A DNA stretch of 9,493 nucleotides from a virus (IMGVR_UViG_2537561618_000014); one strand, 5' to 3'; shown: positions 1 through 9,493, numbered from the stretch's first letter. Numbers and translations are program-made. Notes: a model not told the origin generated them from the letters alone.

Positions 1-87
1 ACTGAACAGCAGATTTACCGTCAGCTGACTGACGAGGTACTGGCCCTGCGATTGCCTGAAAACGGCTCACAACTGCACCATTCATAA
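1..87 (+). CDS. 3' end of an unidentified gene entering from the left edge (last 28 codons, ...TEQQIYRQLTDEVLALRLPENGSQLHHS*); partial
   Basis: Only frame 1 is open from the window edge to TAA at 85-87; the other two plus frames stop within about 30 nt. It converges on the minus-strand gene at 267-743. Product not recognised. Confidence 0.3.
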   Translation, partial: TEQQIYRQLTDEVLALRLPENGSQLHHS

Positions 88-121
88 TCACATCGCATAA
101 ACCACAGACCGGACTGACTCC

Positions 122-150
122 GGAAAAACAGAGGCCCGCCCCCGGGCCTC
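122..150 (-). terminator. Rho-independent terminator (minus strand) downstream of the 267-743 gene
   Basis: Perfect GC-rich palindrome GAGGCCCG-CCCC-CGGGCCTC at 131-150; on the minus strand it is followed by TGTTTTT (complement of the A-run at 124-128). Confidence 0.5.
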
Positions 151-266
151 CCCTGATTCATCCGTTTCCCTGTTCAGCCTGACAGCACGCCCCGGCTGCC
201 GGATGACAGACTCCGCTTCGGTAAGCAAAGCGGTCTTCTGTGATTCCGCCAGTTGCGGCTTATTCA

Positions 267-743
267 TTACTTAACGTCAAACGCCCGAATTGAAGCCAAA
301 TCATCCAGACTGCTCAGCTCCTCTTTCATCTCACGCTGACGGCGATAAATCTCATCGTTGCGATCGACCTGCGCCTGCACCATTGCTGCCGCCAGTTCTT
401 CCAGTTCCGGCATCGACAGTTTCACCTGCTGATTATCGGCATCGCTCCACGCCATATGTGTTTGTGCTGTGACAGATTTTGCCAGCATGACTACCGGGGA
501 CAGGCGGCCCAGTGAGTCGGCGCCAGCATTCCAGATACGACCGTTCCATTCAAACGTGAACGGCTTCGCCTCCTGTTCTGTGCGCCATGCTTCAATTTCC
601 TGACGTCTGGCCTCTCTGGCCGCTTCCAGCATTTCTGGTGTCACAGTGAATGGGGCTATCTCACCCCATTTGCCACTTTGCAGTTCCTGCCAGATTTGCT
701 GACCCGTCGGTGCGACATCATCAGCGGTGGCTGTGTAGGGAAC
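267..743 (-). CDS. Phage-associated protein, 5'-truncated by IS600; weak resemblance to tail-fibre-assembly-like proteins (WNG..W motif) but lacks the usual Tfa C-terminal signature
   Basis: Track ORF 267-644 (GTG at 644). The same frame stays open upstream to the IS600 boundary at 743/744 (...VPYTATADDVAPTGQQIWQELQSGKWGEIAPFTVTPEML...), so the gene continues into the insertion point and has lost its 5' end. Product assignment is tentative. Confidence 0.5.
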   Translation of the reverse strand, partial: VPYTATADDVAPTGQQIWQELQSGKWGEIAPFTVTPEMLEAAREARRQEIEAWRTEQEAKPFTFEWNGRIWNAGADSLGRLSPVVMLAKSVTAQTHMAWSDADNQQVKLSMPELEELAAAMVQAQVDRNDEIYRRQREMKEELSSLDDLASIRAFDVK

Positions 744-1645
744 TGAGGTGTACTGGCAATAGCGGACACTACCATTTGTCTTTTTTTAAGCAGCCATCTG
801 ATGATATTTTTCCCTGAAGGCTGCCGGGGAGATATTCCCCAGACGAGAGTGACGACGCTGACGATTGTAGAAAATCTCAATGTATTCCCGTATTACTGAG
901 ATGGCTTCATCCCGGTTATTAAAACGATAGTGGCTCAGGCTCTCATTTTTCAGCGTTCCCCAGAAGCTTTCCATCGGAGCGTTGTCGTAACAGTTACCTT
1001 TACGCGACATTGATGTTTTCAGACCAAACTGCTCCTGTATGACCCGGTAATCGTATGCGCAGTACTGTGAACCTCGATCAGAGTGGTGGATTAGCCCGGC
1101 AGGTGGGCGCTGGCTCCTGAGCGCCATAAACAGGGCTTTACCTGTCAGCTCTTTTGTCATGCGCTCTCCCATGGCGTAGCCGACAATTTCGCACGTATAA
1201 ACATCTTTGATGCCAGCGAGGTACAACCATCCCTCCTGTGTGGCAACATACGTCAGGTCCGCCACCCAGACCTGATTTGGTGCTGTAGGAGCGAACGTCT
1301 GGTTCAGCAGATTTGGCGCAACTGGCAGATTGTGGTTCGGGTTCGTAGTCGCTCTGAACTTGCGTTTCTGCTTACAGCGTAGCCTCAGCTCCTTACGAAG
1401 ACGTGCCAGTCGGTCACGACCAACGATGATGCCATTCTCTGCCAGCTCCGTCTGGAGCCGCCGGGTTCCATATGTTTCGCGAGTGCGGATATGTGCCACC
1501 TTAATCTCCAGTTTTAGCCGCTCATCACTTTGTTTTCTGTCTGAGGGTTCATGCTGTACCCAGTTGTAATAACCGCTCCTGGATACACCAAATACCTGAC
1601 ACATCGCTTCAATGGGAAATTGTTGTCGCCATTGTTCGATTAACG
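744..1645 (-). mobile_element. IS600 (IS3 family), truncated copy: right end plus orfB retained; orfA and left inverted repeat replaced by IS1
   Basis: Starts with the terminal repeat TGAGGTGTACTGGCAATAGCGGACACT at 744, the same sequence that starts the complete copy at 7770. Near-identical to 7770-8672 apart from a few substitutions and one indel. Homology stops at 1645 where IS1 begins. Confidence 0.85.
786..1604 (-). CDS. IS600 OrfB transposase catalytic region, orphaned (no orfA upstream)
   Basis: Track ORF 786-1820; residues from MCQVFGVSRSGYYNW onward match the second copy's OrfB (7813-8631) almost exactly. The first ~72 residues of the track ORF are read-through into IS1 and are not real. 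Without orfA and the frameshift site it is unlikely to make a functional OrfAB transposase. Confidence 0.85.
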   Translation of the reverse strand: MCQVFGVSRSGYYNWVQHEPSDRKQSDERLKLEIKVAHIRTRETYGTRRLQTELAENGIIVGRDRLARLRKELRLRCKQKRKFRATTNPNHNLPVAPNLLNQTFAPTAPNQVWVADLTYVATQEGWLYLAGIKDVYTCEIVGYAMGERMTKELTGKALFMALRSQRPPAGLIHHSDRGSQYCAYDYRVIQEQFGLKTSMSRKGNCYDNAPMESFWGTLKNESLSHYRFNNRDEAISVIREYIEIFYNRQRRHSRLGNISPAAFREKYHQMAA

Positions 1646-1700
1646 GGTAATGCTGCCAACTTACTGATTTAGTGTATGATGGTGATTTTAAGGTGCTTGC

Positions 1701-1976
1701 GTGGCTTCCATTTCCATCAGATGTCCTTCCTGCTCCGCTACTGAAGGCGTGGTGCGTAACGGCAAAAGCACTGCCGGACATCAGCGCTATCTCTGCTCTC
1801 ATTGCCGTAAAACATGGCAACTACAGTTCACTTACACCGCCTCTCAGCCCGGTACGCACCAGAAAATCATTGATATGGCCATGAATGGCGTCAGATGTCG
1901 CGCCAGTGCACGCATTATGGGCGTTGGCCTCAACACGGTTTTACGTCACTTAAAAAACTCAGGCCGCAGTCGGTAA
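1701..1976 (+). CDS. insA: IS1 InsA (transposition inhibitor / N-terminal part of the InsAB' transposase)
   Basis: 91-aa [38 protein letters not shown]..., the IS1 InsA family with zinc-finger-like cysteines. Confidence 0.9.
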
Positions 1977-2398
1977 CCTCGCGCATACAACCGGGCAGTG
2001 ATGTGATTGTCTGCGCTGAAATGGACGAACATTGGGGCTACGTCGGTGCTAAATCACGTCAGCGCTGGCTGTTTTACGCGTATGACAGGATACGGAGGAC
2101 GGTTGTGGCGCACGTCTTCGGGGAACGCACTCTGGCCACACTGGAGCGTCTTCTGAGCCTGCTGTCGGCCTTTGAGGTCGTGGTATGGATGACGGATGGC
2201 TGGCCGCTGTATGAATCACGCCTGAAGGGAAAGCTACACGTTATCAGCAAGCGTTACACTCAGCGCATTGAGCGACATAATCTGAATCTGAGACAACATC
2301 TGGCAAGGCTGGGACGGAAGTCACTGTCGTTCTCAAAATCGGTGGAGCTGCATGACAAGGTCATCGGGCATTATCTGAACATAAAACACTATCAGTAA
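1895..2398 (+). CDS. insB: IS1 InsB frame (expressed as InsAB' by -1 frameshift)
   Basis: 167-aa ORF in the -1 frame relative to insA and overlapping its 3' end; the standard IS1 arrangement. Confidence 0.85.
1952..1958 (+). other. IS1 -1 frameshift heptamer A AAA AAC
   Basis: AAAAAAC at 1952-1958, with AAA and AAC as zero-frame insA codons (...LKN...). This is the known IS1 slippery motif. Confidence 0.6.
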
Positions 2399-2458
2399 GT
2401 TGGAGTCATTACCAAGAAAGAGAAGGTAAAGAAGGTAAGTCCATACTGTCTCCACTAT

Positions 2459-2482
2459 AAAAAAACCGCCAATTTCTGGCGG
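2459..2482 (-). terminator. Rho-independent terminator (minus strand) of the exported-protein gene
   Basis: Stem CCGCCA / TGGCGG (2466-2471 / 2477-2482) with a 5-nt loop, followed on the minus strand by a T7 run (complement of the A-run at 2459-2465). It lies 9 bp past the stop codon at 2491. Confidence 0.65.
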
Positions 2483-2490
2483 CTTATATA

Positions 2491-2973
2491 TTAATCATCA
2501 TTAATATCTTTCATATTCAATTTGCAATTTTCGTAGGTCACTCCCGACTCGCCATTAACATTAACTCCAGCTCTGATATTCCCGTTTTCTTTTACATCTA
2601 CAAAAAACTGGCCTCTTGGCATCTTGAACGCAAATGTAAAACCAACAGTATCTGAATCAAAATCATCATCTTTATATATTGGGATCAAAAATGTCATCGT
2701 CGCTGGTGATGCATTGTTTGCAAAATCAAATACACCTATACTTTTGCCGAATTCATAAGAAGCTTTTCTCAATATAATCGCACCGCTGGCAGAAGGGGAT
2801 GGGCACGATATCCTCAGTTGTCTGAATCCATCTGTATCCAAGTCAACGTCATTATCTGCAGATGTTTTAACGTTACTAATAAATCGTGAAACAATCTCCT
2901 CATTTGTTAGTATTTTCGCCTGAGCACAGCAAGAGGTTAATATTGCAACCGTCATTAAAAATGGCTTTATCAC
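2491..2973 (-). CDS. Hypothetical exported protein or lipoprotein (160 aa), AT-rich, function unknown
   Basis: Track ORF with a GTG start at 2973 preceded by GGAG at 8-nt spacing. N-terminus MIKPFLMTVAILTSCCAQA has a basic residue, a hydrophobic core, a lipobox-like LTSC and an AQA signal-peptidase motif. Sampled 60-nt stretches are about 30-33% G+C by hand count, against about 60% in a sampled stretch of the adjacent tape measure gene. Own terminator downstream. Confidence 0.7.
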   Translation of the reverse strand: MIKPFLMTVAILTSCCAQAKILTNEEIVSRFISNVKTSADNDVDLDTDGFRQLRISCPSPSASGAIILRKASYEFGKSIGVFDFANNASPATMTFLIPIYKDDDFDSDTVGFTFAFKMPRGQFFVDVKENGNIRAGVNVNGESGVTYENCKLNMKDINDD

Positions 2974-3040
2974 AAAACAAACTCCATTGTTAGCATGTTA
3001 CGCGATAATTTTGCCTCATCTTTCACCACAAAAAAAGAAC

Positions 3041-4990
3041 TCACCTTTTAAATGGAGAATACCCAACATCATGGGTGATTTTCATAAAGGGATCGCCTGT
3101 TTTCGGCAAATCGATAACGCGCATTCCAGGCGGCGCGTTGTCAAACGTCACCTTAAGTTCGCTGCGGGTTGCCGGTGAAGATGCAAGGCTTAACAGCTGA
3201 TTCCTTTCCAGTGATACATTCGGGGTGTAGCGTTTATCGGGAGATAAATACCCATCACCACGTGGCATCTGCCATCCGGTCATGTCATAGACAAAATCAT
3301 GGAACTGTTTGCCCCACTCGTCGAACTTATCATTCAGACCAAATCCACTGTTCAGTGCATCAGCCACAAAATTTTTAACAAGCCAGGGATGTTCTTTTTC
3401 AAACTCCTGCGCCATCATGCCCAGTTCAAGCAATCCACCAATCAGACTGATCTTTCCGAGGCCCTTTAATTTCAGCCCTGTTTTTCCTGCCGCCGTTGTC
3501 CATTGATTCTGGGCGACTGTTGCCGCACGAATACTTGCCACCGCCTTCACACCAATATACAGGGCAGAAACCGTTGCTATTGTTTTTACTGCCTGTTCCC
3601 ATCCCCCCATTGCTCTGACAACCTGATCAACCTCCTGCCAGACTTTTTTCACAACCGGACCGACCGTTTCCCAGTTATCAATTATGAGATATGCACCACC
3701 GACGAGAAGCGCAATTAATCCCTTTGCCGGCGTCATATTCATCACGCTACCCATGATTTTTGTTATGCGTGTCAATGTGCCAATCGCCACGCCCATCGTC
3801 AGTAATGCCGCACCAGTTTTCGCGATGGTTTTTACGACCTCAGGATTTTCTCTGACAAACGTGCGCACTTCTTCCAGAAAAGGCTTCATCTCTTTTATGC
3901 CTTCATTGAGTGAAGGCAGGAAGGTTTCCCCCAGCGTGGAAGAAATCGCATTGATCTGGTTCTGCAGCAGCAACAACTGATTTTCTGTCGTCGCGGCACG
4001 GGCGGCATATTCTTTCTGCATTGAGCCGCCATACTGCTGCGCATCCGCCACACGATTAAAGTTGGTTCGCAACAAATCCAGATTCGTGAGCAGCGGCGCA
4101 ATGGCCCCCAGGGATTCCTTCCCGAACAGCGCTTTCAGCACAGCAGCCTGTTTTTCTTTCGGCACTTTTGCCAGAGAATCCAGTACGTGCAGCATGGCCC
4201 CGCGGGCGTCTTTCTGCATATCCGCCGCCAGTTTTTTCGGGCTAATGCGCAACGAGCGGAGCACTTTTTTCTGCGATTTGGTGGCAGAATCCCTCGCTGT
4301 CAGCGACAACATAAAATTCTTTATCCCCGTCGCAGCAATTTCTGACTCCACCCCCATTCCGGCAATGGTTGCCCCCATTGCGGCAATCTCTCCGGAGGCC
4401 ACACCCGCAACACTGCCTAAAGGGCCAATACGGGTCACAACATCAGAAATCTTTTTCGCACTTGCAGGACCGGTATTGCCAAGATAGTTAATCTTATCCG
4501 CAAGCCCTGCCACCTCTCCCTGTGTCAGTTTAAAGGCAGTGCGCCACTGCGCCATCATCTGACCGGATTCTTCTGCCGTGGTGTCAAAGGCCACGCCCAT
4601 CTTCACGGCATCGTCAGTAAACTGCATCAGCTCGTCACGGGCGATACCAGCCTGACCACCCGCCGCCACAATTTCGGCGATACCTTCCGCCGACATGGGC
4701 AGTTCTGTTGACAGGTCGCGCACCTGCTCCGTCATTGCCTTAAACGCTTCCGGCGTATCCAGACCATCCACCACTTTCCGGACATCCGCCATTTTTGATT
4801 CAAGGGCAATGGCAGATTTGACCGGGAGCGCCAGCGCCCCCAGTACTGCGGTTCCGGCACCCGCTGCGCCCAGTGACAGGCTGGCAAACTCCTTTTTAAA
4901 ACCTTTCAGCTGGCGCTGCATTCCCTTCAGCGGTGCCGATACCTTATCCACGGCAGTGATGATCGCCTTCAGCTGAAAACTGTCAGCCAT
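3041..4990 (-). CDS. Phage tail tape measure protein
   Basis: 649-aa ORF, Ala/Gly/Leu-rich with predicted helical stretches and hydrophobic segments, positioned immediately after the tail chaperone gene whose frameshift extension ends overlapping this ATG (ATGGCTGA). Confidence 0.85.
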   Translation of the reverse strand: MADSFQLKAIITAVDKVSAPLKGMQRQLKGFKKEFASLSLGAAGAGTAVLGALALPVKSAIALESKMADVRKVVDGLDTPEAFKAMTEQVRDLSTELPMSAEGIAEIVAAGGQAGIARDELMQFTDDAVKMGVAFDTTAEESGQMMAQWRTAFKLTQGEVAGLADKINYLGNTGPASAKKISDVVTRIGPLGSVAGVASGEIAAMGATIAGMGVESEIAATGIKNFMLSLTARDSATKSQKKVLRSLRISPKKLAADMQKDARGAMLHVLDSLAKVPKEKQAAVLKALFGKESLGAIAPLLTNLDLLRTNFNRVADAQQYGGSMQKEYAARAATTENQLLLLQNQINAISSTLGETFLPSLNEGIKEMKPFLEEVRTFVRENPEVVKTIAKTGAALLTMGVAIGTLTRITKIMGSVMNMTPAKGLIALLVGGAYLIIDNWETVGPVVKKVWQEVDQVVRAMGGWEQAVKTIATVSALYIGVKAVASIRAATVAQNQWTTAAGKTGLKLKGLGKISLIGGLLELGMMAQEFEKEHPWLVKNFVADALNSGFGLNDKFDEWGKQFHDFVYDMTGWQMPRGDGYLSPDKRYTPNVSLERNQLLSLASSPATRSELKVTFDNAPPGMRVIDLPKTGDPFMKITHDVGYSPFKR

Positions 4991-5410
4991 GCTTCATCTC
5001 CTCGTTAATGCGGACGGCCTCGGCTTCCAGTTCTGTAAACTGCGAAACAGCCACCCGTCGCAGCTCCAGTGGATTCAGTTTCCAGAACCAGGCAACATTG
5101 TAGAGTCGTTTCCGGAGGTGCTTCCCGTCTCCGACTGGGTAAAAAAACGCAGGATCTGCATGCTGGTCTTAAAAATATCCAGTTTTGCCATCTGCGCCGC
5201 CGATGAACACGGGATCCCCGCCAGCAACGGGATATATTTCAGTGCCACCTGGCTGTCCAGTTTAATACTGCCTTCACCGGAAATAATGAAAGGAAAACCC
5301 AGCGCCTCGATTTCGTCATACGTGGGCTCGCGCAACTCCAGCACATGCAGCATTTCGTTATGCGCTGTCACCGGTTTTTTTAAAACTATTTCTGTAACGT
5401 TCATTGCCAT
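4983..5410 (-). CDS. Predicted -1 frameshift fusion of the tail assembly chaperone (E+E'-like / G-T-like product)
   Basis: After a -1 shift at the T7 run, the frame reads ...RFF YPVGDGKHLRKRLYNVAWFWKLNPLELRRVAVSQFTELEAEAVRINEEMKHG* and stops at TGA 4985-4983, overlapping the tape measure ATG (4990-4988). Confidence 0.55.
5075..5410 (-). CDS. Phage tail assembly chaperone (P2 gpE / lambda gpG analogue), zero-frame product
   Basis: 111-aa ORF between the tube and tape measure genes. Its ATG overlaps the tube stop (TAATGG) and is preceded by GGAGGG. It contains an in-frame T7 slippery run near its 3' end. Confidence 0.8.
   Translation of the reverse strand: MAMNVTEIVLKKPVTAHNEMLHVLELREPTYDEIEALGFPFIISGEGSIKLDSQVALKYIPLLAGIPCSSAAQMAKLDIFKTSMQILRFFTQSETGSTSGNDSTMLPGSGN
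5141..5147 (-). other. Slippery heptamer T TTT TTT for programmed -1 ribosomal frameshifting in the tail chaperone gene
   Basis: Plus-strand A7 at 5141-5147 is T7 on the coding strand, in phase X XXY YYZ with zero-frame codons TTT TTT (F89 F90). Confidence 0.55.
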
Positions 5411-5765
5411 TACTGATACCCTCCCTCTTCGCCGTGGAATTCAAGATCTGCCGTGCCTTCTTCGGCATTATGATTAGCCTCTCCGTGCAGCCATGCCGCC
5501 GAAAGCACATACACCATGCCGTTTGCCAGCTCAGCGGTAATCGTCATCTGGTCTGAGGTGGTAATTTTGTCGACCGGAAAGTTTTTGGGCACTTTAAACG
5601 TGCCCTTAACGTAAGGTGACCGCCAGGTCTCCTTGTAATCCACATCCCCTGCCATGCCGACGATGTCATCCCGGACATTGGTGTTCATCGGCACTTCAAT
5701 GCCACCTGTCAGCGATAACTGCTGACCATCCACTTTAAAAAACAGGTTCCGGCGATCTTTGCCAT
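5410..5765 (-). CDS. Phage tail tube protein; apparent frameshift near the 5' end (possible pseudogene or homopolymer error)
   Basis: The track ORF 5410-5835 would start 70 nt inside the sheath gene with no Shine-Dalgarno. A well-placed ATG at 5765-5763 with GAGGAG 8 nt upstream overlaps the sheath stop (TAATG) but is in a different frame and stops after 18 codons. One extra T in the T6 run (plus-strand A6 at 5737-5742) would join it to the long frame, giving about 118 aa (MAKIAGTCFFKVDGQQLSLTGG...). Tube assignment is by size and position between sheath and chaperone. Confidence 0.7.
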
Positions 5766-7261
5766 TATGCTGACTCCTCTGAATACTGAAGACGGAACTG
5801 GTTAACCACCGCAAAGACACGTAACTGATTAACATAATCCGGCGGGAACAGCGTATTCAGTCGGTTCGGGTTATCTGCATCACGCTCAACTATCAGATAC
5901 TGTTTAAACAGATCGTAATTTTCCACAATACCGGCACGCTCCATCTGACGATATGTCGCCAGAAGTTCCCCTTTGATAACGGCAGGAGTGACAATCGCCT
6001 GCCCCGGACCAAAACGGGTACCATCATTTGCCAGCTTGTGACGTCCGTACTTGCTTGTGATGACCGATTTCAGTTTGCGAAGAACATATGCACTGGTATG
6101 CAGAGTTTCACTGTCCAGATAGCTGTTGTCTGCCACGCCATACGCATTCTTTTTGTAGGTGGTTACGGAACGCTGGATCTGCAACGTGCCGCCTTCCACA
6201 TAAGCCGTCGCCACGCCGTGAGATAAAAGGGTCTGCTGCTCTGTCATGATGAATCGCTTACCTTTCGGTGCCGGAAGCATCCCCACCAGCTCCCCCGTCT
6301 GTGTCGGACGGGCAGGATCATTCCGGATAAATACCGCTTCACGGGCAAGGCGACTGGCAACCAGTTCATCGACAGGCGACTGGGTTTCTTTTTCGTAACC
6401 GGCAAGCGTGATATGTTGCTGATTATGCATATCTCCGGCACCAACCAGCTCTGACAGCGTTCCCAGTTTTGCGGTATAGACATGCCCGTATAACTGGCGC
6501 GCATAACTCCAGCGACCGCTGCTGTCATTCATTTCGGTCATCATCATATTGATGGAGGCGGCATCGTTGAACGGCAGACCGATAAAGTCGAATGCCTCAT
6601 CGCCCATAGCAGCAACAGCGGCGGTAAGATCAGGCGCTCCGCTACCGGCAGCACCGACTTCCGTCACCACCCGAAGCCCTGCTGGCAAAATCTCACCACC
6701 ACCAGAACCATAATAATTCAGACAGACCGGTAACTCATTACCATACAGCCCCTTATGACGGGCAGTCAGCGTCACCACGCCTGCATCAGATGACGCCGTA
6801 AACGGCAGGGTGATAACCCCGTTTACCGCTTCCTTAATCGCGGTGGCAACCGCAGTGGCATCATCGCCATTCACCACAGGCACCTGTACACGGGAGCGCC
6901 CGACATACAGACTCAGGGTGCCGCTTTCCTCTGCTTCTCCGGCAACCGTCACCCTGACCGTCGCCGCCGCCCCTCTGGCTTCCGGTACTGCAATAACATA
7001 CAGTTCACCGAAAGGATCTGTCTGACGGTAGACTTCCACCATACGCGCCAGCTGGCTCCCCGCCCCACAAATCTGGCGGGCATAATCTGCCGATGGCATC
7101 AGCACCAGGCTGTTAACCTCAATGGCTGCATCGTTGCTGGCATGCCCGATCAGTAATGCAGGCGCGCTGGTCACCGCTGTATTTGCCGCAGAATTGTTCA
7201 TCTCGGCGTAGAACAACGGCACCAGCGTATTCGACGGAACAGTATTAAAACTTATCGTCAT
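5765..7261 (-). CDS. Phage contractile tail sheath protein
   Basis: 498-aa ORF, first gene of a sheath-tube-chaperone-tape measure cluster. Its size fits sheath proteins of Mu-like rather than P2-like phages. Its ATG at 7261 overlaps the stop of the small upstream ORF (ATGA). Confidence 0.85.
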   Translation of the reverse strand: MTISFNTVPSNTLVPLFYAEMNNSAANTAVTSAPALLIGHASNDAAIEVNSLVLMPSADYARQICGAGSQLARMVEVYRQTDPFGELYVIAVPEARGAAATVRVTVAGEAEESGTLSLYVGRSRVQVPVVNGDDATAVATAIKEAVNGVITLPFTASSDAGVVTLTARHKGLYGNELPVCLNYYGSGGGEILPAGLRVVTEVGAAGSGAPDLTAAVAAMGDEAFDFIGLPFNDAASINMMMTEMNDSSGRWSYARQLYGHVYTAKLGTLSELVGAGDMHNQQHITLAGYEKETQSPVDELVASRLAREAVFIRNDPARPTQTGELVGMLPAPKGKRFIMTEQQTLLSHGVATAYVEGGTLQIQRSVTTYKKNAYGVADNSYLDSETLHTSAYVLRKLKSVITSKYGRHKLANDGTRFGPGQAIVTPAVIKGELLATYRQMERAGIVENYDLFKQYLIVERDADNPNRLNTLFPPDYVNQLRVFAVVNQFRLQYSEESA

Positions 7262-7419
7262 GATTTTTTAGCCTTATCCTGTTTAACACGTACCACATCA
7301 CCCGCCGCTATACGGCGGAACCAGTAGCTGCTTTCTTCCACATTTCGCCCTTCGGAAGGCAAAAGGTCTCCACGGGCAGGGTCAGGAACCGACCGCCCTT
7401 TCAGGGGTTTCACAAACAT
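7258..7419 (-). CDS. Small hypothetical phage protein (53 aa), translationally coupled to the sheath gene
   Basis: ATG at 7419-7417 (MFVKPLKGRSVPDPARGDLLPSEGRNVEESSYWFRRIAAGDVVRVKQDKAKKS*); stop TGA 7260-7258 overlaps the sheath ATG. Below the 60-aa cutoff of the supplied track. Weak SD (AAGAG). Confidence 0.35.
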   Translation of the reverse strand: MFVKPLKGRSVPDPARGDLLPSEGRNVEESSYWFRRIAAGDVVRVKQDKAKKS

Positions 7420-7428
7420 GAGGGACTC

Positions 7429-7769
7429 TTAATTCTGAGGGAAACGCATTTCCAGATGGTGCTCAATGTCACCATCCGGGCCAGTACCAGGATCGATGTA
7501 ATCCACATCAATACTCAGCAGGGATAAATCCGGCAGGGCATTCACGTCCTCTGCCTGTCGCGTGTCTTCTTCCGTGATTTCATACTTCGCCGTAAAATCA
7601 AACTGGTAATACAGTTCGTAACGGTTCAGATCCAGCAGGGTGCCACCGACATAAACAATCTCGCCCCCTTGCGGGTCCGGCATCCATCCAAGCAGGGCTT
7701 TCCAGAGTTCTCTCCGGACATCATGAACGGCGTCATAGGCTGCCCACTGCCCTTTTTCATCACGCTCAT
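7429..7769 (-). CDS. Phage structural or morphogenesis gene upstream of the sheath (possible neck / tail-completion protein), 5'-truncated by IS600
   Basis: Track ORF 7429-7785; the first five codons lie inside the IS600 terminus, so the true N-terminus is missing. About 113 C-terminal codons remain (NERDEKGQWAAYDAVHDV...EMRFPQN*). Function inferred from position only. Confidence 0.55.
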
Positions 7770-7812
7770 TGAGGTGTACTGGCAATAGCGGACACTACCA
7801 TTTATTCTTTTT

Positions 7813-8631
7813 TTAAGCAGCCATCTGATGATATTTTTCCCTGAAGGCTGCCGGGGAGATATTCCCCAGACGAGAGTGACGACGCTGACGATTGTAGAAA
7901 ATCTCAATGTATTCCCGTATTACTGAGATGGCTTCATCCCGGTTATTAAAACGATAGTGGCTCAGGCTCTCATTTTTCAGCGTTCCCCAGAAGCTTTCCA
8001 TCGGAGCGTTGTCGTAACAGTTACCTTTACGCGACATTGATGTTTTCAGACCAGACTGCTCCTGTATGACCCGGTAATCGTATGCGCAGTACTGTGAACC
8101 TCGATCAGAGTGGTGGATTAGCCCGGCAGGTGGGCGCTGGCTCCTGAGCGCCATAAACAGGGCTTTACCTGTCAGCTCTTTTGTCATGCGCTCTCCCATG
8201 GCGTAGCCGACAATTTCGCACGTATAAACATCTTTGATGCCAGCGAGGTACAACCATCCCTCCTGTGTGGCAACATACGTCAGGTCCGCCACCCAGACCT
8301 GATTTGGTGCTGTAGGAGCGAACGTCTGGTTCAGCAGATTTGGCACAACTGGCAGATTGTGGTTCGGGTTCGTAGTCGCTCTGAACTTGCGTTTCTGCTT
8401 ACAGCGTAGCCTCAGCTCCTTACGAAGACATGCCAGTCGGTCACGACCAACGATGATGCCATTCTCTGCCAGCTCCGTCTGGAGCCGCCGGGTTCCATAT
8501 GTTTCGCGAGTGCGGATATGTGCCACCTTAATCTCCAGTTTTAGCCGCTCATCACTTTGTTTTCTGTCTGAGGGTTCATGCTGTACCCAGTTGTAATAAC
8601 CGCTCCTGGATACACCAAATACCTGACACAT
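7813..8631 (-). CDS. IS600 OrfB (transposase DDE catalytic region; expressed as OrfAB fusion)
   Basis: Track ORF; the OrfB frame actually opens further upstream to the frameshift site near 8716. IS3-family OrfB with DDE-type integrase fold motifs (e.g. ...HSDRGSQYCAYDY...). Confidence 0.9.
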   Translation of the reverse strand: MCQVFGVSRSGYYNWVQHEPSDRKQSDERLKLEIKVAHIRTRETYGTRRLQTELAENGIIVGRDRLACLRKELRLRCKQKRKFRATTNPNHNLPVVPNLLNQTFAPTAPNQVWVADLTYVATQEGWLYLAGIKDVYTCEIVGYAMGERMTKELTGKALFMALRSQRPPAGLIHHSDRGSQYCAYDYRVIQEQSGLKTSMSRKGNCYDNAPMESFWGTLKNESLSHYRFNNRDEAISVIREYIEIFYNRQRRHSRLGNISPAAFREKYHQMAA

Positions 8632-8666
8632 CGCTTCAATGGGAAATTGTTGTCGCCATTGTTCGA

Positions 8667-8969
8667 TTAACGCGTATTTTTCAGCGACTCCTGTGCAAAA
8701 TACGCTGTTGCTTTTTTTAATATATCTCGCTCAAGGCGAGCTTCATTTAACGCCTTACGCAGTTGCAGAATTTCAGATTCCAGTTCAGCCACCGTGCGGG
8801 AACCAGGAGTACCGAGCCCTTTTCTGGCGGCGGTAACCCATTGTCCTAAAGTGCCTTCAGGAAGAGATAATCGGGAAGCGCCTTCACTGATCGAAAGTTG
8901 ATTTTCAAGAACCGTTCTGACAGCTTCGGCTTTGAACTCTTTAGAGTAACGTTGGGTTTTTCTGCTCAT
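8667..8969 (-). CDS. IS600 OrfA (helix-turn-helix / leucine-zipper DNA-binding component)
   Basis: 100-aa ORF MSRKTQRYSKEFKAEAVRTVLENQ...ERDILKKATAYFAQESLKNTR, matching IS600 OrfA as I recall it. Confidence 0.9.
   Translation of the reverse strand: MSRKTQRYSKEFKAEAVRTVLENQLSISEGASRLSLPEGTLGQWVTAARKGLGTPGSRTVAELESEILQLRKALNEARLERDILKKATAYFAQESLKNTR
8712..8718 (-). other. IS600 orfA-orfB -1 frameshift site (A AAA AAA G)
   Basis: Plus-strand T7 at 8712-8718 is A7 in orfA codons L-K-K. A -1 shift reads ...KKSNSVFCTGVAEKYALIEQWRQQFPIEAMCQVFGVSRSG..., joining into OrfB. Confidence 0.6.
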
Positions 8970-9033
8970 TATTAGCTCCTTCTGATGCCATTCTATTTCA
9001 GGAAGGAGTGTCCGTTAAACTCAGGCTACCTCA

Positions 9034-9269
9034 AAAAACTAGTATTAAGACTATCACTTAAATAAGTGATACTGGTTGTCTGGAGATTCAGGGGGCCAGT
9101 CTAATGAGTTCAGTAATATAAGCGAACTGAAGGATGCTGTTACGGAATATATTGAATACTACAACAGCAGAAGAATTAGCCTGAAATTAAAAGGTCTGAC
9201 TCCAAATGAATATCGGAATCAGACCTATATGCCTCGTGTTTAACTGTCCAACTTTTTGGGGTCAGTACA
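9034..9269 (+). mobile_element. Right-end remnant of a second IS3-family element (IS150-group-like), cut by IS600
   Basis: Contains a transposase C-terminal fragment and ends with an inverted-repeat-like terminus ...GTTTAACTGTCCAACTTTTTGGGGTCAGTACA (reverse complement begins TGTACTGACCCC..., resembling IS150-type ends). Begins abruptly at the IS600 boundary. Confidence 0.6.
9070..9243 (+). pseudogene. C-terminal fragment of an IS3-family OrfB transposase
   Basis: Open frame ...GGQSNEFSNISELKDAVTEYIEYYNSRRISLKLKGLTPNEYRNQTYMPRV* with stop TAA 9241-9243; typical C-terminal end of IS3-family OrfB proteins; no start or catalytic region present. Confidence 0.6.
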
Positions 9270-9284
9270 AACCGAGGCCAACGA

Positions 9285-9343
9285 ATGAACCAAGCAATTC
9301 AGATTGTTAGCCTCTTACCCGCCATCCGGCAAGGAGAAAGGCT

Positions 9344-9347
<4 letters not shown>
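9285..9347 (+). CDS. Short mok-like leader ORF (20 codons) coupled to hok
   Basis: ATG at 9285, MNQAIQIVSLLPAIRQGERL*, stop TGA 9345-9347 overlapping the hok ATG (ATGA). Much shorter than canonical mok frames, so the assignment is tentative. Confidence 0.3.

Positions 9348-9493
<146 letters not shown>

Follow-up and report, generated by a model that had tools for sequence, protein, structure and literature searches.

Shigella flexneri genomes differ from one another by inversions mediated by insertion sequences (IS), one of them mediated by IS600 (PMC1550401), and IS600 is among the five IS that have expanded in all Shigella, where IS cause deletions and rearrangements (PMC7373316). The phages to which the DNA studied here is compared, Stx2e phage phiP27 and the Shigella serotype-converting phages SfV, SfII and SfI, combine a lambdoid organisation with an HK97-like head and a Mu-like contractile tail. 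The window (the whole stretch of DNA analysed, 9,493 nucleotides) comes from a Shigella flexneri-type chromosome and represents a decayed myovirus prophage, phiP27/SfV-like and carrying ipaH, in which two IS600 copies, designated A and B from left to right, enclose an IS1 and the tail block of the prophage remnant. Three kinds of IS event have very probably remodelled this remnant, with copy B being a recombinant of two older IS600 insertions.

Gene content of the prophage remnant

The window opens with the 3' end of ipaH, encoding a T3SS E3 ubiquitin ligase effector (1-87, plus strand), which shares 99% identity with ipaH loci annotated in enteroinvasive E. coli, whose annotated CDS ends at the equivalent of window position 87. 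It is followed by a hypothetical 59-aa ORF that accompanies ipaH islands (88-267, minus strand), the exact protein being found beside ipaH and DUF4376 in many Shigella-type chromosomes, and by a DUF4376 (phage tail-fibre-associated) gene lacking its first 147 nt (267-743, minus strand; Pfam DUF4376, E = 7.5e-17), which copy A cuts at 743/744. The uninterrupted DUF4376 gene of loci L001 and L002 runs on at this point as ...GGGAAC/TGCCTGG, and the fragment protein of the window has no exact match on record.

The intact prophages of E. coli FDAARGOS_944 (L001) and of locus L006 serve as references. The prophage genes to the right of IS1 all lie on the minus strand. The first is a DNA-circularization (Mu gp43-like) gene of which only the first 31 nt are left (2414-2444), window position 2414 corresponding to position 9001 of L001, within CDS 7640-9031. 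Next comes a 160-aa low-GC ORF (2491-2973) with a signal-peptide/lipobox-like N-terminus, a prophage cargo gene present in the intact prophage, for which a Pfam search gave no match; this is the gene that had been called an exported-protein gene from the sequence alone. The tail genes proper comprise the tape-measure protein (3041-4990; Pfam PhageMin_Tail, E = 1.4e-44, and so annotated in L001), the tail assembly chaperone (5075-5410; Phage_TAC_7), a frameshifted tail tube gene (5410-5835; Tail_tube, E = 9.5e-30), the contractile tail sheath protein (5765-7261; three Pfam sheath domains), a small DUF2635 tail protein (7258-7419; Pfam DUF2635) and the 3' part of the tail-terminator gene (7429-7769), which matches Phage_tail_terminator profile positions 83-147 of 150 and is cut by copy B; the intact gene in L001 and L006 encodes 187 aa. 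The tube gene, whose native span would be 5410-5766, has lost 1 nt from an A-run at 5736 relative to all eight related loci, and an exact look-up of the frameshifted protein matched solely a 5.3-kb draft contig.

The order terminator-DUF2635-sheath-tube-chaperone-tape measure, together with nucleotide similarity to phage, places the tail block in the phiP27/SfV-like group, and the tail gene order in intact relatives is identical. Identity over 3050-7769 amounts to 96.7% with phiP27 and to about 77% with SfV, SfII and SfI. Unlike these phages, the window is a remnant without head, baseplate and fibre genes and with a frameshifted tube gene; unlike phiP27, it also has ipaH and the 160-aa cargo ORF, the latter not found in phiP27. 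In related chromosomes the block spanning 744-9033 always sits at one ipaH/zinT-linked locus. A scan of GTDB genomes returned only two close loci, each with the common arrangement, and an Rfam scan of the window gave zero matches.

The truncated IS600 and the IS1-bounded deletion

Copy A (744-1645, 902 bp, minus strand) keeps 902 bp of IS600 from the IRR end onward, orfA and the IRL end being gone, and its identity with copy B (7770-9033) ends at 1645. Both copies point the same way, the transposase being encoded on the minus strand, and an alignment of about 903 columns shows 4 substitutions and 1 indel between them (about 99.4% identity); their starts are 7026 bp apart, with 6124 bp of DNA between them (1646-7769). 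These measurements bear out a sequence-only reading of the window, which had described two same-orientation IS600 copies, near-identical over some 900 bp and separated by about 6 kb. That reading had also placed truncated phage genes at the right ends of the copies, which is incorrect: it is the left ends that adjoin such genes, the DUF4376 gene (743) for copy A and the tail-terminator gene (7769) for copy B, and the right ends meet IS1 and the IS2/IS150/hokB region, respectively.

The left junction of copy A at 744 is identical in every related genome examined. With its IRL end missing and a single end left, copy A does not allow a target-site duplication to be scored; the earlier claim that neither copy has such a duplication stands for copy B only, which is flanked by CAT and AAA. 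The IS1 that truncates copy A (1646-2413, 768 bp, plus strand) is bounded by 23-bp terminal inverted repeats (arms 1646-1668 and 2391-2413), and the homologous genes of related loci are reported to carry InsA and InsB Pfam domains. Its flanking 9-mers differ (CGATTAACG versus AAGAAAGAG) and thus show no 8-9-bp target-site duplication, which is consistent with a deletion end-point. Relative to the intact prophage, exactly 8,157 bp are missing between window positions 745 and 2414 (L001 844-9000; L006 12578-20734), comprising the baseplate and tail-fibre genes and everything between DUF4376 and the circularization gene. The rearrangement end-point on the copy A side is the outer IS1 end (2413/2414) rather than the IS600 end at 744, and it is in this indirect sense that copy A marks a rearrangement junction, as had been proposed for both copies.

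As the initial event, an IS600 would have entered the DUF4376 tail-fibre gene, and IS1 would later have landed inside that IS600. The last 362 bp of IS600 beyond IS1 would then have been lost along with the 8,157 bp that cover the tail-fibre and baseplate genes, fusing copy A to IS1, either by IS1-mediated adjacent deletion or by recombination between two IS1 copies. The arrangement resembles an IS1-mediated adjacent deletion in that IS1 is kept, with its original target (IS600) still attached on one side and a distant part of the same prophage joined on the other, no 9-bp duplication is present and 8.5 kb are gone; such a deletion is indistinguishable here from recombination between two IS1 copies.

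Judging from the sequence, recombination between copies A and B that would excise about 7 kb is plausible, because they have 902 bp in common at 99.4% identity in direct orientation. Locus L027 shares the DUF4376/IS600 junction with the window, has a full-length IS600 and lacks the tail block; considered as a product of such a deletion it is not clean, since a lambdoid phosphatase gene lies on its other side.

The complete IS600 and its two probable parental insertions

Copy B (7770-9033, 1264 bp, minus strand) is a complete IS600 with TGAGG...CCTCA ends, reading TGAGGTGTACTGG... at 7770 and ...CAGGCTACCTCA at 9033, which form imperfect inverted repeats with 5'-TG and CA-3' tips. Its orfA (8667-8969) encodes a HTH_Tnp_1 domain and its orfB (7813-8631) HTH_21, rve, rve_3 and rve_2 domains (Pfam); the two frames overlap around an A7G slippery run, and the gene calls of related loci include a fused 385-aa product. 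Sequence identity reaches at least 99% with elements that E. coli RefSeq lists as "IS3-like element IS600 family transposase"; with copy B as the query, 80% or more of its length is covered by 1,746 records. Its OrfB variant has no exact protein match on record. Copy B thus agrees with the IS600 of Shigella and E. coli (IS3 family, IS3 group) in its 1264-bp size, termini, ORF pair and identity. Unlike standard IS600, copy A is just a 902-bp fragment and copy B has mismatched flanks, CAT (7767-7769) and AAA (9034-9036), as a recombinant of two insertions would. Recombination after insertion, and not non-membership in IS600, would explain why copy B lacks a matching duplication. In keeping with the earlier claim, refinement of the boundaries by empty-site alignment revealed only a 2-nt TG ambiguity, common to the IS end and the target, and no 3-bp duplication in the window.

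To its right, copy B adjoins the terminal 70 bp of an IS2 (9034-9103, minus strand), the rest of which lies across IS600 at the hokB locus of relatives; there the sequence is ...CCAATGACTAGTCTAAA/IS600/AAAAACTAGTATTAAGAC..., and transposase genes of IS2 type lie alongside. Beyond it, upstream of hokB, lies a 166-bp 3' remnant of IS150 (9104-9269, plus strand) with a 55-aa rve_2 fragment (9076-9243), corresponding to the IS150 family transposase annotated beside hokB in E. coli. Exact matches to the fragment protein occur solely at standard hokB loci, and the alignment with a relative without the IS (L015) begins only at 9270. The window closes with the type I toxin gene hokB (9344-9493, plus strand), annotated as such in the chromosomal trg-hokB-ydcA-cybB neighbourhood.

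Comparison with relatives traces each flank of copy B to a separate locus that holds a complete IS600 with a matching duplication. At the tail-terminator site, CP034060.1 (L011) carries a simple insertion with CAT on both sides (...CACGCTCAT/IS600/CATTGCTGAGC...), and the empty site in L001 and L006 reads ...CACGCTCATTGCTGAGC.... At the hokB site, most related S. flexneri-type chromosomes carry a simple insertion with AAA on both sides, in the IS2 nested in IS150 upstream of hokB, and this AAA/AAA duplication is seen in loci L014-L023. The window combines the two as CAT/IS600/AAA, with ...GCTCAT of the terminator gene on the left side and AAAAACTAGTATT... on the right. Window positions 1-9033 are colinear in eight S. 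flexneri-type chromosomes, all of which part from the window exactly at 9033/9034, and seven hokB loci (...TCTAAA/IS600/AAAAACTAG...) are colinear with 7770-9493, beginning exactly at 7770. Since the window follows the tail locus as far as 9033 and, starting at 7770, the hokB locus, we infer that copy B is a hybrid of two pre-existing IS600, and, its flanks coming from two loci that each have their own duplicated IS600 in relatives, that it marks a recombination joint. Shigella flexneri SFBU1023 is a chromosome of the kind colinear with window 1-9033.

The earlier description of copy B as a rearrangement junction rather than a simple insertion is therefore upheld for the joint, with flanks from two loci, yet the element began as a simple insertion, as the matching duplications of the ancestral state in relatives (CAT/CAT and AAA/AAA) indicate. 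Among other IS600 copies of the same genomes, 3-bp duplications are the rule at simple insertions (CAT/CAT, TGT/TGT, AAA/AAA), and mismatched flanks are also common. Three versions of the tail IS600's right flank occur among strains, as do two of the hokB IS600's left flank, and L019 shows a 2.06-kb adjacent deletion at the hokB IS600. Within copy B, the diagnostic SNPs at 7804, 7808 and 8054 carry tail-copy alleles, and 8345A is otherwise found in hokB copies only; 8430A, to the right of this hokB-type allele, matches just a subset of tail copies, so that the few informative sites do not describe a clean single crossover.

Origin of the joint and comparison with IS-mediated rearrangement in Shigella

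The succession of events at copy B would be as follows. A second IS600 would have entered the tail-terminator gene by ordinary transposition with a CAT duplication, and a third would have entered 70 bp inside the IS2 nested in IS150 upstream of hokB with an AAA duplication. The tail-terminator copy would then have recombined with the hokB copy over the 1.26-kb element in this strain, presumably by homologous recombination, yielding the CAT/IS600/AAA hybrid, through which the tail remnant comes to lie right beside the hokB region. The parental copies are separated by 220-229 kb in two reference chromosomes, where they are directly repeated and the hokB copy precedes the other, so that the joint would be the tandem-duplication or circle joint of the intervening segment, or the outcome of at least two inversions: one recombination in these layouts places it on an excised circle or at a duplication junction, not on a simple deletion chromosome. 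That the joint is the junction of an IS600-bounded tandem duplication or excised circle of the ~220-230-kb hokB-to-ipaH segment is supported by this geometry, which gives it in one step, but we regard this outcome as tentative and on balance unlikely. The counterpart joint predicted by recombination between the two copies would read IS2 body-TCTAAA/IS600/CATTGCTGAG, continuing into the 5' part of the terminator gene, or be followed by GAGTGTCATCTG (IS66 tnpC).

The exact joint was found in none of 5,426 complete E. coli genomes and in none of the Shigella-type chromosomes reached by exact-protein look-ups; in the complete E. coli genomes, coverage of the window at a single place never exceeds 56%, and none has an IS600/IS2/IS150/hokB joint beside tail genes. 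That the window alone has it among all genomes examinable would suit an assembly artefact, in which the left flank of the tail locus was joined to the right flank of the hokB locus across a 1.26-kb repeat present in dozens of copies. The joint is, moreover, not the product of a simple viable deletion in the reference layouts, and the mosaic SNP pattern might equally be the consensus of a collapsed repeat. IS-bounded strain-to-strain rearrangements are nevertheless abundant at these very loci, the window has private variants, one of which, the tube frameshift, recurs in an independent assembly, and the sequence itself gives no sign of a misjoin; we thus consider an artefact improbable.

IS3-family elements are able to generate adjacent deletions, and the one-sided deletion beside the hokB IS600 of L019 provides a local precedent for copy B having moved, or having deleted or inverted adjacent DNA through intramolecular transposition, with 9033/9034 as the new joint. 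Both flanks, however, correspond to the base to sites occupied by IS600 in other strains, each with a 3-bp duplication; a de novo event would have to strike the identical nucleotide inside IS2, and the hybrid contains the hokB-typical 8345A allele. Because both flanks coincide with already occupied sites, we reject de novo transposition as highly improbable. The outermost ends of 744-9033 do form a correctly oriented pair, copy A IRR and copy B IRL, as expected had the block moved as a unit in the manner of a composite transposon. Its outer flanks are nevertheless AAC and AAA, without duplication, everything from the left flank through 9033 lies in the same place in all related chromosomes, the right flank alone varying, and its interior is colinear with the resident prophage; the missing duplication and fixed location lead us to dismiss this explanation as scarcely credible.

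Recombination between the two older IS600 insertions explains, for annotation purposes, the abrupt end of the ipaH island beside hokB and the state of the tail genes as a non-functional remnant, and it provides a worked example of a hybrid IS with both parents identified to the base. Otherwise it adds nothing to the established picture, in which IS1, IS2 and IS600 expansion leads to deletion, inversion and prophage decay in Shigella. The joint could matter locally if it marked a large duplication or a strain-specific inversion useful for typing; were the reading as a duplication or circle correct, a large segmental amplification including an ipaH effector gene would be present, perhaps heterogeneously, in the source strain.

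The event is of an already known kind, namely the routine IS-driven scrambling of Shigella genomes. As in the IS-mediated rearrangements described between S. flexneri 2a and 5b and across Shigella, an IS present in many copies supplies portable homology, the joint falls exactly at the IS ends, the flanks come from two distant loci and the arrangement at one IS varies among strains. What differs here is that both parental insertions can be named to the nucleotide and that the direct-repeat geometry with the hokB copy upstream suggests a duplication joint or multi-step inversions in place of a one-step deletion.

IS600 copies and their surroundings

Repeat finding and pairwise alignment revealed that window positions 744-1645 and 7770-8672 are direct repeats of one sequence, with four substitutions and one 1-nt indel between them. 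The second of these IS600 copies extends to 9033, for a total length of 1264 bp, has TGAGG...CCTCA termini, and matches, at about 99% identity, E. coli RefSeq features labelled 'IS3-like element IS600 family transposase'; within it, the minus strand encodes orfA (8667-8969, HTH domain) and orfB (7813-8631, rve domain). Its flanks read CAT on one side and AAA on the other, and the sequence-only reading was correct in the coordinates, identity, orientation and missing target-site duplication that it assigned to the IS600 copies. The first copy is cut short at 1645 by a 768-bp IS1 (1646-2413), whose terminal inverted repeats are 23 bp long. The same reading had truncated phage genes abutting the right ends of both copies; it is in fact their left ends that do so, the right-end neighbours being IS1 for the truncated copy and a stack of IS2, IS150 and hokB for the complete one.

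Positions 1-743, a region that is multi-copy in enteroinvasive E. coli, carry the 3' terminus of an ipaH effector gene, followed by a 59-aa ORF and a tail-fibre-associated gene of the DUF4376 type. In the tail block (2414-7769), a 160-aa cargo ORF is followed by the genes for tape measure, tail chaperone, tube, sheath and DUF2635 and then by the tail-terminator gene, of which only the 3' part remains; the block is 96.7% identical to Stx2e phage phiP27, compared to about 77% for SfV, SfII and SfI. Beyond the complete IS600 lie the terminal 70 bp of IS2 (9034-9103), a 3' remnant of IS150 (9104-9269) and chromosomal hokB (9344-9493).

Deletion of fibre and baseplate genes at IS1

The whole prophage is present in E. 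coli FDAARGOS_944 (L001) and in a 4.37-Mb chromosome (L006), where ipaH and DUF4376 are followed by tail-fibre, fibre-assembly and baseplate genes (gp48, gp47, gp46, gp45 and gp44 homologues), the gene for the DNA-circularization protein, the 160-aa ORF, the tail genes from tape measure to terminator, and lastly head genes and terminase. Comparison with an intact prophage had been proposed as a means of mapping missing segments, and it located one: window position 745 aligns with L001 position 843 and 2414 with 9001, and the truncated IS600 and IS1 therefore stand in place of exactly 8,157 bp of fibre- and baseplate-gene DNA. The 9-mers on the two sides of IS1 are unrelated, indicating that the outer end of IS1 is the deletion end-point; the deletion may have arisen either by IS1 adjacent deletion or by IS1 x IS1 recombination. 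The earlier view of the truncated IS600 as a rearrangement junction was thus right in spirit, with the junction lying at IS1.

The 160-aa ORF (2491-2973, minus strand, 37% GC) has a lipoprotein-signal-like N-terminus (...AILTSCC...) and no Pfam match. In the intact prophage it lies between the DNA-circularization and tape-measure genes. Both phiP27 and many E. coli relatives of the tail block lack it, and it is therefore a candidate phage 'moron'.

Origin of the complete IS600 copy

An exact-protein look-up with the tape measure returned ten Shigella-sized NCBI chromosomes, eight of which are colinear with window 1-9033 (99.8-99.9% identity) and part from it exactly at 9033/9034; the Shigella flexneri SFBU1023 record is equivalent to these. 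The tail-terminator IS600 of CP034060.1 (L011) is a simple insertion (...CACGCTCAT-IS600-CATTGCTGAGC...) relative to the empty site of the intact prophages (...CACGCTCATTGCTGAGC...), and in the other seven chromosomes its flank on the IRL side lies within an IS66-family tnpC gene (GAGTGTC...). Across strains, this flank takes three forms: terminator 5' part, IS66 tnpC and IS2/hokB. A HokB look-up retrieved the hokB locus from the same kind of genomes, ordered as trg, IS150 5' part, IS2, IS600, 70 bp of IS2, IS150 3' remnant and hokB. Seven hokB loci read ...GACTAGTCTAAA-IS600-AAAAACTAGTATT..., where AAA is a 3-bp duplication from a five-A run in IS2, and are colinear with window 7770-9493, beginning exactly at 7770.

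Being colinear with the tail locus to 9033 and with the hokB locus from 7770, the window follows the tail locus through IS600 and the hokB locus from IS600 onward, and the CAT-IS600-AAA joint reads as one half of each parental duplication. Both flanks match, to the base, sites occupied by IS600 in other strains, which argues against a new transposition, and the joint is best explained as the product of homologous recombination between two resident IS600 copies. The complete copy is hence a rearrangement junction, as had been claimed, with flanks from two loci, but it began as a normal insertion (CAT/CAT in CP034060.1, AAA/AAA at hokB) and recombined later. Its alleles at 7804, 7808 and 8054 are those of tail copies, the allele at 8345 is otherwise found only in hokB copies, and 8430 again resembles some tail copies, leaving the crossover without a clean placement.

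Both loci were fetched for CP020339.1 (L010/L020) and CP034060.1 (L011/L022), in which the parental copies are direct repeats about 229 kb and 220 kb apart, respectively, with the hokB copy upstream of the tail copy in window orientation. A single exchange in that layout would place the joint on an excised circle or at the new junction of a tandem duplication; the same joint could also arise, with DNA neither gained nor lost, from two inversions in succession via other IS copies. Misassembly across the 1.26-kb repeat would likewise fit the finding of no second genome with this joint among complete E. coli genomes and the Shigella-type chromosomes reached by exact-protein look-up, but we consider it improbable.

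IS600 junctions and variants in related genomes

Upstream of hokB (window 9034-9493; hokB locus L018, 5929-10150), three IS3-family elements are nested: IS150, next to hokB as it is in many E. coli, harbours IS2, and IS600 lies 70 bp into IS2 with an AAA duplication. In L019 (GCA_048288385.1; 8402-8427), the hokB IS600, which gave the window its right flank, has an adjacent deletion on one side: its IRR side is joined to the interior of the IS150 5' part, and IS2 and about 2.06 kb are gone. The tail IS600 of most S. flexneri-type loci adjoins tnpC at ...GATGACACTC-IS600 (L005, 5901-5975); in CP034060.1 (L011, 4300-4400), that tnpC is broken off 2 nt sooner and fused directly to the 3' end of the capsid gene, with no IS. 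These junctions suggest that the IS66 element once contained an IS600, which one lineage may have lost together with adjacent DNA and which in the others may have recombined with the tail copy.

Recombination between the truncated and complete copies would delete 7,026 bp and leave truncated DUF4376-IS600-flank. L027 (GCA_900457225.1) has the DUF4376-IS600 junction exactly as in the window, a full-length IS600 and no tail block, but it is not a clean product of this exchange, as its other flank is a lambdoid Ser/Thr phosphatase gene. This IS600 (8259-9524) has AAC on both sides, yet the flanking genes are unrelated; the unoccupied phosphatase site of L028 has a native AAC. Either two insertions happened to share the AAC triplet and recombined afterwards, or IS600 entered a fusion that already existed.

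Differences between the window and its eight colinear relatives gather in multi-copy DNA, namely the ipaH flank, IS600 and IS1 (1-743, 744-2413 and 7770-9033), whereas no relative differs from the window at more than two places in the 5.3-kb single-copy tail block (2414-7769): a substitution relative to three of the eight and, relative to all eight, an A-run at 5736 (5730-5740) one A shorter. Such clustering suggests that the repeats have undergone gene conversion, not ordinary divergence. The A-run indel frameshifts the tube gene (5410-5766) near codon 10; the identical 141-aa ORF is on record in one draft assembly only (GCA_018025975.1), and the frameshift is therefore probably a real lineage marker, not a sequencing error.

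Among the fetched loci, simple IS600 insertions carry CAT/CAT, TGT/TGT and AAA/AAA duplications, and copies with mismatched flanks are at least as many; the tail and hokB copies both differ from strain to strain. IS600 is one of five IS expanded across all Shigella species, in which IS have caused deletions and rearrangements (PMC7373316), and one of the multiple IS-mediated inversions between S. flexneri 2a and 5b has been attributed to it (PMC1550401). The IS600 joints of the window are thus of an already known kind, in which a Shigella prophage decays and is reshuffled by IS in the ordinary way.
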